Position numbers and translations under genes: made by a program. A stretch of 48,091 nt of DNA from Candidatus Heimdallarchaeota archaeon (GTDB taxonomy: Archaea > Asgardarchaeota > Heimdallarchaeia > JABLTI01): assembly GCA_018238155.1 (NCBI GenBank), contig JABCTZ010000040.1:1-48091 (forward strand), written 5' to 3'. Below the pieces are notes generated by a model. That model made no database searches and was not told the DNA's origin. It was given only the letters and a program-made list of their open reading frames with translations. Positions 17,252 through 24,601 of the stretch are shown one piece after another (the stretch's first letter is position 1; every line of letters begins with the position of its first letter).

Positions 17252-17854
17252 CTAGATTAATAAACCACTTTTCCAATTGAATTTATATGTCAAGTTACCA
17301 TCCCACATTTTTTTCTTTTCCACATAAGCTTCAGATAAATTTGAATATCCTAACTCATCTAAGGGCTCATTTTTCTTCATCAAAATAAATTGAGAATAAA
17401 TTGGTATTCTATATTTTTTTGTACTAACATCCAATTGAAATTTCCTATATCCTAGAACAGCACGTTCATTTATAATTCCAAACCAATCTTTTTTACTCTT
17501 AGATTTCACGTCGAATCCAATTAACAAACCTTTGGCTAGTAATAGAAAATCAGGCATTTCATTTTTCATCTGAACTCGTTTATTCCTCAAATCTTTTCCT
17601 AAATGAAATATTAAATAGCCTTTGTTTATTAATAGTTTTAAAATGGATTCCGAAGCTCTATCGTGCATTTGATAATTCTTAAGAAATTGTTCTTTTGTTT
17701 TGATTGGTTTATAATCTAAAATTTCACCATATTCCTTTTCCATATAATTTCGAATGTTTAGTAAAACCTCTTTTAATTCAGGTTTTTCTTTAAAAATATT
17801 CAATAATTCTTCTTTTTTTTTCTGTAGCGCTAATTCTATGATAGATTCTTCCAA
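17252..17854 (-). CDS. Putative PD-(D/E)XK restriction endonuclease
   Basis: EMPDFLL...GFDVKSK catalytic motif; directly downstream of two DNA methyltransferases. Confidence 0.65.
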   Translation of the reverse strand: MEESIIELALQKKKEELLNIFKEKPELKEVLLNIRNYMEKEYGEILDYKPIKTKEQFLKNYQMHDRASESILKLLINKGYLIFHLGKDLRNKRVQMKNEMPDFLLLAKGLLIGFDVKSKSKKDWFGIINERAVLGYRKFQLDVSTKKYRIPIYSQFILMKKNEPLDELGYSNLSEAYVEKKKMWDGNLTYKFNWKSGLLI

Positions 17855-17916
17855 GAATACCCTCTCTAATTATAGAGGTAGAATTTTGTTTAAATAATTC
17901 TAATTATTAAGGCAAT

Positions 17917-18675
17917 TCAGCACTTCTTTCCAATTATAATATATTCATGAGCTAATAGAAACAAACCTTTATCTAGAACTTTTTTTCTAACTTTTTCGTT
18001 TCCAAATAAAAAGCTATTAGTTCTAGCTTGTATATGAACAATTATTCTTTGTAATGAGAAACCAATTTCTTCAAACATTAATTGTGTTTTATACCCTAAT
18101 GGATGAAATTTCCATCCGTCTATTGCATCACCAATTACTACACAACAATATTTTTGAGGTTTTAGAACACGATACATTTCTTCGAAACTTTTTTCTAAAC
18201 CTTCTAAATATTGTCTATAATGTTTTGAATTACCTAAACATTGCTCCTCACTACTATACGAAATCAAATTCCAATAAGGTGGAGAAGTAACAATTAAGTC
18301 AATACTATTATCTTTTAATATTAAATTCTTAGCATCACATATTTCAGCACGAGAAATTATATCTTCTCTTCTAATTTTCATAATTTTCTCATTTGATAAA
18401 TTAATAGCATTCGGATTAATATCGAATCCAATAGAATTCCTTCCCAATTTAAGAGCTTCAATTAATGTTGTTCCTCCACCCAAGAATGGATCGAGAATAA
18501 AATCTCCTTTTGTTGTATATTTTTCAATCAAAATTCTAGGGATTTTTGGTGGAAATTTTCCAGGATAATTTTTCAAACTATGAACTTTATCATGGCTAGG
18601 ATAATCTTCAGGGAAGAACCAGATTGTTGTTTCATAATTTTGCATCCAAGCTATATCTACCATAGTCTTCGACAA
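17917..18675 (-). CDS. DNA amino-methyltransferase (N4-C/N6-A family, SPPY)
   Basis: YPGKFPP, ILDPFLGGGTT (motif I), IGFDIN, IDLIVTSPPYW (motif IV), YRVLKP, HEYI. True start possibly ATG 18663. Confidence 0.9.
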   Translation of the reverse strand: MSKTMVDIAWMQNYETTIWFFPEDYPSHDKVHSLKNYPGKFPPKIPRILIEKYTTKGDFILDPFLGGGTTLIEALKLGRNSIGFDINPNAINLSNEKIMKIRREDIISRAEICDAKNLILKDNSIDLIVTSPPYWNLISYSSEEQCLGNSKHYRQYLEGLEKSFEEMYRVLKPQKYCCVVIGDAIDGWKFHPLGYKTQLMFEEIGFSLQRIIVHIQARTNSFLFGNEKVRKKVLDKGLFLLAHEYIIIGKKC

Positions 18676-18717
18676 AAATTCTTGAAGAAACTAAAAAAAC
18701 ACCACGGAAAAAAATCA

Positions 18718-21613: not shown

Positions 21614-21638
21614 TTTTATTCCCAATTTCCATCTACAT

Positions 21639-23777
21639 TTATTCAAGCCCAGGAAAATAACTTTCCCGCTTTAATCTATCACCCAAAATTTCACTTTGTA
21701 TGAAATCAAGAATCCTTGAATAAGCATCATTTTTCTGCTCGATGAAATTCTTAACATCTTTAGTGAATTTATAACCAGGATGTGCTTGAACATATTTTAT
21801 TGCTTCGGGTATGAAGCTGGTGAAAGATTCCATCCATTGAGCTATTCTTTGTAATTTAACGTTTGGTTGTGCAGCTCTTCCATCAATTAACTGGTCTGAA
21901 TTGGGATTGGCATCATAAGTAAATTGTTTTATTAAATCTTTACCTCTAAATGATAGATTCACCAAATCTTCATCTGTGAAATCAAATATTCTTTTGTAAA
22001 TCTCTCTTTTATTTGCCTTATTATCATACAAGTCATAGTAAAGATCAACAATGCCTTTAATTAAACTCAAAATCAAATAATTCCAAAATCTTACTGAAAC
22101 AACATATGAACAGAAATTATTCCTTTTCTGTAGATAATCTTCAAATGATACATATTTTATTCTTTTATCAAATTTTGGATTTTGAATAGCCTTTCTGATG
22201 AGTTTATCCTTTTTATCGTATAATTTTTTCATAATATCTGAAATTCTCTTTATACCATTTGTAAATACAATAGTTTCAAAAACATTCATACCGAGGTTTT
22301 CAGATTCATCTAACTTGGCTAAATTAAAAGCTTCATTGAAATTATCCAAGTTGTCAAATATTGACTTTTTAGCAGCTCTTGCAATATGTGGTTTTCCTTG
22401 CCAGGCCATACTTAGTTGTGCTAAATCTTCTATACCTATTTTTCGATAACTAGTTCCAGAAATTTTAAACATTTCTAATTCAGTTTTTCCTTTGAAATAT
22501 CTCTGAAAGGAGTTAAATAATCCTCTTTTATTTTCATAGAAAATGGGAATTGTGGTTTTCTCTAAAATCTCCTTAATTTTTAGATGAATAGGATGATTTG
22601 CTCTATAGTCTATTTTAGTAATTGGATTCTGTGTATTACTGGACAATGTAATAGCATCTATTAGTTGTGTATTTTCATGTGTTGGTACAATTTTTGCCCA
22701 TACATAAACATTTGATGAAAATAAATCGTCTTCAGATTTAATTTCAGAATCCGATCTTCTGGTTTCAACAGCATCATGTAACGCCCAAGATGTTTGACAT
22801 CCATTAACTACTTGAGGACGAAAAAGAATTACTTCAACGATTTTACCATCATGAAAATTCTTATATTCATCCTTGGAACTAGCATCCATCAGAGAGCTAA
22901 ATGTTATACTATCACACACTATATTTAGTCCATTATTAAGAATTTCAAAGCTATAATCATCATAAGGTGTGCTAGTTCTAAGTAAACTTAGTGCTTTTTC
23001 TTTTATTTCACGACCTATTGAACCTTGCCTGGTATATGGCAATCTAAGACGTAAGTTCTGAGCAAATATCGCATCACCATATTGGTTAACAAATTGGTAA
23101 ATTGTATAGGAATGAATAGGTAATATAACGGCTTTAATTTCATTGTCTGAATCACGCCTAACAACAAAATTCTCACTAACAACCGGGATTCTAATCTCAC
23201 TTGGTGATTGTGCATAAAAGGAATCCATATCTCTTACATATCTAAGGATTTGATTTAAGCCGTAAATTTCTATATTGTTTTCTCTTGCAAGCTTTCTAGC
23301 ATCATCATTAAACTTACCAGTTACACAAACAACTTTTCTCAATGGTTTTTGGAGATTTTTTGAGAATTTGTAATCATCTCTTAATCTATTGAATGAGTCA
23401 GAGGTTGATTTGTCATTTTCTTCTAATTTCTTAATGCCTCTTATCAATTCATCAATAACTTCCGGTCCATAAGAAGGAGTTTTTTTCTGAAAAATATTAT
23501 CTGAATATTTACATTGTACTAGAAGTATAGTATCTGATATTCTCCCGGCAGATCCAATGTCAATTCCTTTATCACCTGGTTCACCTATCACTATTTCATT
23601 TGTATCAGATAGTGAGAATCCTAAAAATCTATGAGCTATCCAACATTCGAAGGTTCTTCCTGCGCCATGTGTATTTGTTCTATCTGTTCCAAAAATTTGT
23701 GATATTTCATCTAAATCTTCATTAAATTTTTCTAAAAATTCATCATACAATATTGCCATTTCCAATTTCCTCTCCAA
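21639..23777 (-). CDS. AIPR family protein with N-terminal Mrr-like nuclease domain
   Basis: N-terminal GRTFE..GDKGID..LVQCKY. AIPR motifs IFAQNLR, FEILNNGLNIVC, QVVNGCQTS, SNTQNPI..DYRAN, FYENKRG. Confidence 0.88.
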   Translation of the reverse strand: MERKLEMAILYDEFLEKFNEDLDEISQIFGTDRTNTHGAGRTFECWIAHRFLGFSLSDTNEIVIGEPGDKGIDIGSAGRISDTILLVQCKYSDNIFQKKTPSYGPEVIDELIRGIKKLEENDKSTSDSFNRLRDDYKFSKNLQKPLRKVVCVTGKFNDDARKLARENNIEIYGLNQILRYVRDMDSFYAQSPSEIRIPVVSENFVVRRDSDNEIKAVILPIHSYTIYQFVNQYGDAIFAQNLRLRLPYTRQGSIGREIKEKALSLLRTSTPYDDYSFEILNNGLNIVCDSITFSSLMDASSKDEYKNFHDGKIVEVILFRPQVVNGCQTSWALHDAVETRRSDSEIKSEDDLFSSNVYVWAKIVPTHENTQLIDAITLSSNTQNPITKIDYRANHPIHLKIKEILEKTTIPIFYENKRGLFNSFQRYFKGKTELEMFKISGTSYRKIGIEDLAQLSMAWQGKPHIARAAKKSIFDNLDNFNEAFNLAKLDESENLGMNVFETIVFTNGIKRISDIMKKLYDKKDKLIRKAIQNPKFDKRIKYVSFEDYLQKRNNFCSYVVSVRFWNYLILSLIKGIVDLYYDLYDNKANKREIYKRIFDFTDEDLVNLSFRGKDLIKQFTYDANPNSDQLIDGRAAQPNVKLQRIAQWMESFTSFIPEAIKYVQAHPGYKFTKDVKNFIEQKNDAYSRILDFIQSEILGDRLKRESYFPGLE

Positions 23778-23875
23778 TTAATGATAATAACTCACTAAAT
23801 GAATTATCCGAAACCCTATAAACTTTATGACTATGACATTGGATTAAAAGAATAATTAGCTAACAATTCCAATCT

Positions 23876-24601
23876 TTAAAAATAATCACCCAACGTACTT
23901 TGTTTTGGTCTTAGTAGTTCCTTCAAAAGATATTCTTCAAGAGCTCTTTTAGAAACAAGAATATCTTCAAGCTTTTGTGCAGGGTGATTTTGCTTACTAA
24001 TATCCTCTCCGATTATCCTTAGTAAATCTCCCTTGAAACCAATTGTTCCATTGATTTTAAACCCATATTTGCACAATTTTGTCACCATTTCATTATTCGC
24101 ATCCAAAGTTATTGCTTTATCATTCTCTTTTTGACCAAAAGCAACTGTTAAAGAATTGATTGCTTTCTCCCAATCATAAATTGCTTTCAAATAGTCTTCA
24201 CCCAATGCTAAATAAATCAAATTAAACTTCTTTGATATTAAACCAATAAAATCCTTCATAATTTCCAATTTGTTAGATCGATCCATTATCTCTTGATTCT
24301 TCATTTTACTAAAACTGCATTCATAAGCTGGTATCATCTCTTCTGATTCAAGTAAACCAAATCCTGCTGAGATGATGTAGAAATCTACTTCTGCAAATCT
24401 TCTCAGAATTTCTATTCCCTTTATTATACTTTTATGTTGTGAACCTTGATACATATCTATTACTTTACAAATTTCTTTAGAACTTTTTTTCATTATCTCT
24501 TCTCTATCTTGCTTTATAGTGATATCATCGCACTTTAGTTGATTAGATGATGAAAATGCCTTTGCTTTTGTACATGAACTGATAACTAATATTCGAATCA
24601 T
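23876..24601 (-). CDS. YaaA/DUF328-fold, DpdC-like protein with C-terminal PIP box
   Basis: ILVISSCTKAK, DMYQG.QH, IISAGFGLL...IPAYECSF, LALGEDYL; ends QSTLGDYF. Confidence 0.75.
   Translation of the reverse strand: MIRILVISSCTKAKAFSSSNQLKCDDITIKQDREEIMKKSSKEICKVIDMYQGSQHKSIIKGIEILRRFAEVDFYIISAGFGLLESEEMIPAYECSFSKMKNQEIMDRSNKLEIMKDFIGLISKKFNLIYLALGEDYLKAIYDWEKAINSLTVAFGQKENDKAITLDANNEMVTKLCKYGFKINGTIGFKGDLLRIIGEDISKQNHPAQKLEDILVSKRALEEYLLKELLRPKQSTLGDYF

Follow-up and report, generated by a model that had tools for sequence, protein, structure and literature searches.

7-Deazaguanines in DNA are known from bacterial Dpd islands, phages and archaeal viruses, and archaea make preQ0, the base that Dpd systems insert, for archaeosine. 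Type IIS restriction-modification (R-M) systems such as PaqCI, BpuJI and FokI keep a helical or winged-helix recognition module apart from the cleavage domain, and they often have two methyltransferases for their asymmetric site. In the bacterial Dpd system (dpdA-K, Salmonella Montevideo, PMC10164549), a tRNA-guanine transglycosylase (TGT)-fold enzyme stands beside a YaaA-superfamily protein in a genomic island that also holds nucleases, host preQ0 is used, and the proposed logic is to insert preQ0, to convert it and to restrict unmarked DNA, DpdC being the finishing enzyme for the inserted base. Viruses with 7-deazaguanine DNA carry a smaller version, in which DpdA, a short TGT without a PUA domain, is accompanied by a small finishing enzyme called ArcS2 (DUF5591), as in STSV2 (STSV2_15/16), the DNA of which is reported to carry the 7-deazaguanine dCDG (bioRxiv 10.1101/2023.04.13.536721). 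In a computational proposal, BREX-related capture (BRC) systems of archaea and bacteria use a DpdA-like TGT without DpdB as a self-marking add-on to a different defence machinery (PMC12839542). In this article, we analyse a cluster of seven genes at positions 17252-24601 of a 48,091-nucleotide stretch of DNA (hereafter the window; contig JABCTZ010000040.1, assembly GCA_018238155.1) from a Candidatus Heimdallarchaeota archaeon, whose genome comprises 4.08 Mb in 46 contigs (the window being contig C26) with a G+C content of ~30%. We read the cluster, with a probability of about 0.55, as a compact Dpd-like deazaguanine module without DpdB that is integrated with a type IIS-like R-M system, so that self DNA would bear two kinds of mark.

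The gene cluster and the described systems

The seven co-oriented open reading frames fill the interval on the minus strand, and all were found where the initial annotation had placed them. Neighbouring genes are 42-98 nt apart, except for g2 and g3, which share 8 nt.

g1, 23876..24601, minus strand: DUF6884 protein of 241 amino acids (aa) (Pfam DUF6884, PADLOC DpdC)
g2, 21639..23777, minus strand: Mrr_cat-AIPR protein of 712 aa, candidate nuclease/effector subunit (Pfam AIPR and Mrr_cat)
g3, called X here, 20903..21646, minus strand: predicted stand-alone tandem winged-helix DNA-recognition module of 247 aa (by fold)
g4, 19659..20804, minus strand: PUA-less TGT paralog of 381 aa, candidate DNA guanine/7-deazaguanine transglycosylase (PF01702)
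g5, called MT292, 18718..19596, minus strand: SPPY amino-methyltransferase of 292 aa (PF01555, PADLOC MTase_II)
g6, called MT252, 17917..18675, minus strand: second SPPY amino-methyltransferase, of 252 aa (PF01555, PADLOC MTase_II)
g7, 17252..17854, minus strand: protein of 200 aa with a PD-(D/E)xK-type motif, candidate restriction endonuclease partner of MT252 (by motif)

The cassette departs from bacterial Dpd in several respects. Its TGT derives from the archaeosine tRNA-guanine transglycosylase (arcTGT) and reaches 43 bits on the DpdA model, against a cut-off of 200; its helper belongs to DUF6884 and not to DUF328/DpdC proper; and it has neither the DpdB/ParB-like ATPase nor the DpdD-K helicase/PLD set, whereas the Dpd islands have no DNA amino-methyltransferases and no type IIS-like reader, both of which are integral to the cassette. 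That no dpdB or dpdD-K would be recognisable in the module had been anticipated from the sequence, and indeed no DpdB/DndB or DpdD-K model of PADLOC matched any of the nine proteins tested. The only DndB-like gene of the genome (ParB fold, PF14072) lies on contig C43 (34766-36943), ~700 bp from a gene for an MT252-like methyltransferase (36% identity), and the two may form another modification system. The viral pair of DpdA and ArcS2 differs in serving anti-restriction rather than cellular self-marking, in its DUF5591 partner, in having neither X nor an MT292-type methyltransferase, and in its low sequence similarity to the cassette. BRC systems are built on PglZ, BrxC-like, STAND, DUF4007, HerA and GNAT proteins, none of which occurs in the cluster, and have no X module, MT292 or DUF6884, while Cap9/Cap10-type QueC/TGT-like modules are set apart by the QueC-like or nucleotidyltransferase gene, of which the cluster has none adjacent. 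PADLOC v2 gave no system-level name for the nine proteins, and in the searchable literature, outside which most subscription journals lie, we found neither a description of an archaeal cellular TGT/methyltransferase/type IIS-like cassette nor a report of a cellular archaeal 7-deazaguanine DNA system. The architecture, which had not been recognised as a named system, is therefore apparently undescribed as a gene set, and what appears to be new here is the X reader together with its association with methyltransferases of the MT292 type.

Around the cluster, genes for a fragment of UvrD, for a TPR-CHAT protein and for a large helicase were confirmed, and the surroundings look like a defence island. 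Directly downstream, a 979-aa TPR-CHAT protease-like protein is encoded at window positions 14111-17050, and upstream, past a two-domain GNAT gene, a 1515-aa superfamily 1 (AAA_11/AAA_12) helicase is encoded at 26298-30845; each is likely to be a further defence gene. A prophage or virus origin of the cluster was considered and rejected, the phage collection having given only distant STSV matches and the window containing no tRNA gene.

Gene X and the genes that recur beside it

An MT292-type methyltransferase (47-83% identity) stands beside X in all ten distinct contexts that were examined, and a TGT of the g4 family lies near it in nine; DUF6884 is present in six (the window, L136/137, L139, L141, L155 and L156), and AIPR in two, the window and one other genome (G030).

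Window: DUF6884, Mrr-AIPR, X, TGT, MT292, MT252, g7
L009 and L138: PLD-X, TGT, MT292 homolog (83% and 69% identity)
L046 (genome G026): UvrD, PD-(D/E)xK nuclease, TGT, MT292 homolog (64%), X protein, large helicase
L047 (genome G030): Mrr-AIPR (39%), MT292 homolog (64%), 341-aa protein, two TGTs, PLD-X
L136/137, L155 (genome G241) and L156 (genome G276): TGT, nuclease-X, DUF6884, two MT292-family methyltransferases
L139/140 and L141: MT330 overlapping nuclease-X, convergent TGT; DUF6884 in L139 and L141, YhhQ in L139 and L140
L142: Z1, DUF4420, X685, MT475; no TGT within 8 kb

Gene order and orientation vary among these loci, which argues that the linkage is functional rather than accidental, and at three of them (the window, L009 and L138) the genes for the TGT and MT292 run in one direction, ~60 nt or less apart. 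The initial annotation had treated the TGT, the methyltransferases and AIPR as parts of one system that should recur together. For the first two this was found, a TGT, an MT292-type methyltransferase and X occurring together at nine or more distinct loci, while AIPR proved to be an occasional component and not a core part, since only one other locus has Mrr-AIPR.

X begins with an 8-nt overlap with the stop of g2 or, should translation actually start at the ATG at 21613, 25 nt downstream of that stop (236-247 aa), and in the window it is thus a separate gene tightly coupled to that of Mrr-AIPR. It had been described as unknown, which holds as far as families go, for it has no match in Pfam, NCBIfam or PADLOC, but it is not peripheral: it is the key conserved partner of the set. 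The C-terminal halves of three longer proteins are homologous to X, namely a 458-aa PLD protein beside the closest g4 homolog (L009), a 448-aa PLD/NgoFVII-type protein in G030 (L047) and a 383-aa protein in G026 (L046). An exhaustive profile search of 1.84 billion protein representatives returned 30 cluster representatives of the family, which comprises PLD+X proteins of ~445 aa, proteins of ~385-400 aa and a few stand-alone forms. The ~385-400-aa fusions share an N-terminal consensus H...PDF...FExK, which is PD-(D/E)xK nuclease-like, and the N-terminal domains of X fusions gave no match in Pfam when the threshold was relaxed to E 5.

An AlphaFold model of X based on the alignment of 30 sequences has a mean predicted local distance difference test score (pLDDT) of 91.5 and supersedes an earlier one from four sequences (pLDDT 55). 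The structure closest to the model is that of the type IIS enzyme PaqCI, with a Z score of 13.7 and a root-mean-square deviation of 3.0 Å over 203 of 236 residues; the next match scores 8.9, and BrxA, the DNA-binding domain of BpuJI and the recognition domain of FokI are matched at Z 7-8. A Foldseek search of the PDB gave nothing at E <= 0.001, the PaqCI match becoming clear only with an exhaustive aligner, and X has no detectable sequence similarity to type IIS enzymes, so that the likeness is one of fold only. Because of this predicted fold and of the fusions to PLD or PD-(D/E)xK-like domains, the most plausible reading of X is a DNA-recognition module with tandem winged helices, placed on interchangeable nuclease domains, and with such a type IIS-like module the restriction side of the cassette would be recognisable after all. 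Unlike type IIS enzymes, X fusions carry the nuclease at the N-terminus, in reversed domain order, the nuclease is interchangeable (PLD, PD-(D/E)xK-like, or a separate Mrr-AIPR), and TGT and DUF6884 travel along.

The candidate nuclease of the window, g2, matches AIPR clearly (PF10592, E 4.6e-31, 109.1 bits, cut-off 25) and Mrr_cat at the borderline (21.7 bits, cut-off 21), as well as PADLOC AbiU (E 6e-17) and, weakly, NCBIfam MzaE. A homolog with 39% identity lies in the G030 locus beside an MT292 homolog, two TGTs and PLD-X, and no ParB/DndB-like signal was seen in the AIPR of g2 in a Pfam search that allowed E values up to 5.

Both methyltransferases that had been proposed are present. MT292 (E 1.8e-28, 100.5 bits) and MT252 (E 8e-32, 111.4 bits) exceed the PF01555 (N6_N4_Mtase) cut-off of 26.7 bits and match PADLOC MTase_II (E 8e-36 and E 2.8e-42, respectively), with 28% identity between them. 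In both, motif I (DPFLGTGST/DPFLGGGTT) lies upstream of motif IV (TSPPYW), the reverse of the usual order in PF01555; SPPY itself is typical of amino-methyltransferases. That these genes form one joined methylation R-M module is less clear, since MT252 and g7 are conserved as a pair of their own on an unrelated short contig (L133; 87% and 75% identity) and may therefore be a separate type II R-M pair. Alternatively, because other X loci carry two methyltransferases, MT252 may by analogy be the second-strand methylase of the same system, with g7 as an extra nuclease. The earlier description of g7 as a PD-(D/E)xK nuclease is retained as a candidate assignment: E99, P101-D102 and D115-V-K117 (D115-x-K117) are invariant in the eight homologs, the only ones found, and weak language-model (Atlas) leads point to Hjc and PDDEXK_14, but no family matches in Pfam, NCBIfam or PADLOC, even at E 5.

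Another partner of the MT292-type methyltransferases may be a 341-aa protein without a family match, encoded between the methyltransferase and the TGTs in G030 (L047:8611-9636); its homologs, with 24-28% identity, stand beside MT292-type methyltransferases at L144:1256-2212 and L158:4530-5432, with no TGT nearby.

The transglycosylase, its helper and the supply of preQ0

The TGT of the cluster matches PF01702 over residues 17-358 of its 381 (E 2e-20, 73.6 bits, cut-off 26.3) and lies above the superfamily threshold of TIGR00449 (55.3 bits, cut-off 47.6), but below the cut-offs of the archaeosine TgtA equivalog TIGR00432 (88.4 bits against 350) and of the DpdA model NF041059 (42.7 bits against 200, residues 67-263); its match to PADLOC DpdA is partial (E 2.3e-13). 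Pfam reports no PUA or TGT_C domain for g4, and its alignment to the arcTGT of P. horikoshii (1iq8), a 582-aa enzyme, stops at the catalytic domain. The protein carries DSGGY, GIGSLVP, GVDSLDS and CRCPIC...H, and D85 (DSGGY), D120, D250 (GVDSLDS), C296, C298, C301 and H327, which match the catalytic/substrate Asp and Zn residues of 1iq8, are invariant in 32 members of the family. The catalytic Asp motifs, the Zn site, the G-S-L-V-P pocket and the missing PUA domain, all noticed at the outset, are thus borne out by sequence and alignment.

The host genome has six TGT-fold genes, namely a canonical arcTGT of 534 aa on contig C11 (236 bits to PF01702), an ArcS-like gene on C21, g4, a paralog on C4 and two divergent copies on C31. 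Since arcTGT and ArcS are encoded elsewhere, the TgtA score is far below its cut-off and the C1/C2/PUA RNA-binding domains are missing, g4 is, judged by its sequence, not the tRNA enzyme, in agreement with the initial annotation. A database search gave 281 homologs, shown as proteins of 340-425 aa, of which those with named sources are mostly archaeal, and the only virus matches in the phage collection are TGT-like genes of the STSV1/STSV2 group (26% identity). The g4 type is present in none of ten other genomes of the genus, which share only the C4-type paralog, and in nine of 400 genomes of the phylum (E <= 1e-45); this patchy distribution marks it as an accessory gene. The label Dpd-like, under which the TGT had been introduced, fits its probable mode of action, but not its family membership, the enzyme being closer to arcTGT than to bacterial DpdA.

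For the neighbourhoods of the g4 family, 97 loci (64 non-redundant groups) were collected from assemblies, genomes and a metagenome scan, neighbours were clustered and representatives annotated, and counts were taken in the 39 locus groups that span 8 kb or more. A scan of genome contigs with a single TGT sequence gave two loci only, and a metagenome scan with an alignment was needed for more. Genes beside the TGT were counted as follows:

HerA: 31 of 39 locus groups
~1400-aa protein: 30 of 39
NurA-like: 27 of 39
DUF5591: 19 of 39
DUF6884: 12 of 39
DUF5591 and DUF6884 together: 0 of 39

QueC, QueD/PTPS and the preQ0-transporter family Vut_1/YhhQ are also among the neighbours, as are PLD proteins, helicases and nucleases, and the family is thus linked to 7-deazaguanine metabolism. 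DUF5591 is the catalytic core of archaeosine synthase, and in STSV2 the TGT-like gene is followed by its ArcS2-type partner; the either/or pairing of the TGT with DUF5591 or DUF6884 argues that DUF6884 may likewise finish the inserted base. The substrate can be supplied by the host, whose genome encodes QueC with an adjacent QueE-like protein on C13, and QueD with ArcS on C21.

The helper g1, described earlier as YaaA/DpdC-like, is by sequence a member of DUF6884 (PF21818, 33.6 bits, cut-off 30), a sister family of DUF328/YaaA, and hence a distant YaaA/DpdC relative; YaaA itself (PF03883) is matched weakly (19 bits, cut-off 29.6), and PADLOC DpdC covers residues 1-107 at the N-terminus only (E 3.4e-12). 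It keeps the CxxxK (C10-T-K-A-K14, SCTKAK) and LSAxxG (ISAGFG) motifs defined for DUF6884 (PMC11701544), as do the other TGT-linked DUF6884 proteins, and by analogy it is a candidate for the enzyme that finishes the inserted 7-deazaguanine. Its C-terminus, QSTLGDYF (window 23876-23902), agrees with the consensus of the PCNA-interacting (PIP) box, Qxx[LIM]xx[FY][FY]. A second DUF6884 gene, on contig C7 (L034:8874-9572), is 38% identical to g1 over the full length, including the C-terminal extension, and adjoins genes for a SLOG (LDcluster4) protein and an HD-domain protein.

Several further TGT loci were met with. The commonest cassette of the g4 family consists of NurA-like, HerA and the ~1400-aa protein, then DUF5591 or DUF6884, then the TGT (L010, L011, L080, L118, L120 and ~30 more metagenome loci), and we found no publication describing it. 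It shares with the cluster the TGT family (38-46% identity) and the alternative helpers, but its effector side consists of a HerA/NurA motor-nuclease and a giant protein, where the cluster has the X-guided nuclease and the methyltransferases. On contig C4 (L035:8422-10154), a DUF5591 (ArcS2-core) gene lies directly upstream of the PUA-less TGT paralog, which is 29% identical to g4, and this pair is present in seven of the ten other genomes of the genus, beside GAPDH and other non-defence genes. On C31 (L033:4841-8638), a ThsB-like TIR protein, a 107-aa open reading frame, a 196-aa QueC-like protein, a TGT-like protein of 304 aa, a 177-aa TIR protein and a further TGT-like protein of 312 aa are encoded, a cluster that resembles QueC/TGT-like defence modules rather than DNA-marking ones. 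Haloarchaeal plasmids commonly bear TGT paralogs annotated as tRNA-guanine transglycosylase, 22-27% identical to the TGT of L136.

Proposed mechanism, competing explanations and significance

The domain identities, the intact catalytic residues, the preQ0 pathway of the host, the accessory distribution and the recurrent gene set are supported directly, and from them we infer that the TGT acts on DNA rather than RNA, what the marks are chemically and how restriction works. In the mechanism proposed, the arcTGT-derived, PUA-less TGT would exchange guanine in double-stranded DNA for host preQ0 and would do so without a DpdB-type ATPase, like phage DpdAs. The DUF6884 protein would convert the inserted base, by analogy from nitrile to amide, and MT292, perhaps with MT252, would add N4-methylcytosine or N6-methyladenine. 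The methyltransferases might conceivably work on the exchanged base itself, as the initial annotation had suggested. X would direct cleavage to sites without the marks by a nuclease that is either fused to it (PLD or PD-(D/E)xK-like) or, here, supplied by Mrr-AIPR. MT252 and the small protein with the PD-(D/E)xK motif could be the second-strand methylase and an extra nuclease, or else an independent type II R-M pair. Two methyltransferases, as at L136, L155 and L156, fit an asymmetric site of the type IIS-like kind. In the boldest form of this mechanism, X would be a shared specificity element that brings the TGT, the methyltransferase or methyltransferases and the nuclease to the same asymmetric site, and self would be defined by two chemically unrelated marks, a 7-deazaguanine placed by base exchange and an N-methyl group, possibly one per strand; this extension we regard as speculative and rather doubtful.

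Several observations weigh against an integrated system and lend themselves to another explanation, namely that X with its nuclease and MT292 as an ordinary type IIS-like R-M system, the TGT with DUF6884 as a pair that marks DNA or modifies nucleic acids otherwise, and MT252 with g7 as a type II R-M pair are neighbouring independent systems, whose adjacency reflects packing in a defence island. Of 400 genomes of the phylum, 116 have MT292-type methyltransferases and nine have the TGT, and many of these methyltransferases stand alone or are paired with other genes (L144, L157-L163), L157 having a methyltransferase pair without X or TGT. L142, with X and a methyltransferase but no TGT, suggests that these two could be a self-sufficient R-M pair to which the TGT is an add-on, and the Mrr-AIPR protein has its single counterpart in G030. 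The TGT family is mostly found with NurA/HerA, and in a quick tree, which gives poor resolution of its deep branches and of where arcTGT and STSV2 belong, X-linked TGTs fall into three separate clades among the NurA/HerA-linked ones, which points to modules that are re-assorted and not co-inherited. The separate recurrence of MT252 with g7 on L133 speaks in the same direction, and the loci come from pattern-based scans of related metagenomes and are not independent observations. X is rare, however, with its 30 representatives, yet a TGT of one family accompanies it in nine of ten contexts despite varied order and strands, so that chance packing is unlikely, and the close co-directional arrangement of TGT and MT292 at three loci likewise favours a joint function. 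Thus, independent systems are possible, but on the whole an unlikely account of the cluster.

A role of the TGT and DUF6884 in RNA modification or DNA repair instead of self-marking, with the methyltransferases and nucleases as unrelated R-M genes, seems improbable to us. The best family and structure matches of g4 are indeed to the archaeosine tRNA-guanine transglycosylase, its score being closer to arcTGT than to bacterial DpdA in hidden Markov model comparisons; the virus protein nearest to it, from a virus with modified DNA, shares just 26% identity, and DNA as the substrate of the family is a reading from sequence. The conservation of the C4 pair of DUF5591 and TGT, core to the genus and set among housekeeping genes, means that the wider TGT family is not exclusively defensive, and recognition of DNA lesions has been proposed for YfjM, which belongs to DUF6884 (PMC11701544). 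These points are opposed by the missing tRNA-binding domains of g4, the arcTGT and ArcS already present in the genome, the absence of the g4 gene from congeners, and the neighbours of its family, which are overwhelmingly DNA nucleases, helicases, DNA methyltransferases and HerA/NurA.

Mrr-family and GmrSD-type nucleases target modified DNA, TGT-like and QueC-like pairs exist in other defence systems, and Cap10-type TGT-like proteins attach deazaguanine to protein. A modification-dependent (type IV-like) nuclease acting on modified invader DNA, or a TGT that conjugates deazaguanine to protein as in type IV of the cyclic-oligonucleotide-based antiphage signalling systems (CBASS), would accord with such nucleases in or near some loci and with the TIR/QueC-like/TGT-like cluster on C31 of the same genome, but is very improbable, given that no QueC-like or nucleotidyltransferase partner occurs among the cluster proteins, that co-resident methyltransferases of one conserved type argue for self-marking, and that the active site of the TGT is complete and of the nucleic-acid type, with its Zn site retained. 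DpdM-type methylation of preQ1 was also considered and rejected, DpdM being a DUF3109 metal protein unrelated to the methyltransferases of the cluster (bioRxiv 10.1101/2023.04.13.536721).

If the cassette is an integrated marking and restriction system as we propose, archaea have re-used an archaeosine enzyme to mark chromosomal DNA, and a deazaguanine mark is possible without DpdB. The marking module would then be interchangeable, one TGT family plugging either into HerA/NurA machines or into a type IIS-like R-M unit, and base exchange and methylation would be combined in one self/non-self system. Should the reading with two marks at a shared site also be true, the cassette would be the first R-M system to require two-factor marking, and its 7-deazaguanine the first such chromosomal DNA modification shown in Archaea. 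X would represent a new DNA-reader domain family, predicted to work on interchangeable nucleases, which may interest enzyme developers, and the cassette, with four or five genes, is a small testable set. Relatives of the host lineage carry eukaryote-like small GTPases, and in Asgard-type archaea marks of this kind would have consequences for sequencing and cloning and for the interplay of viruses and hosts.

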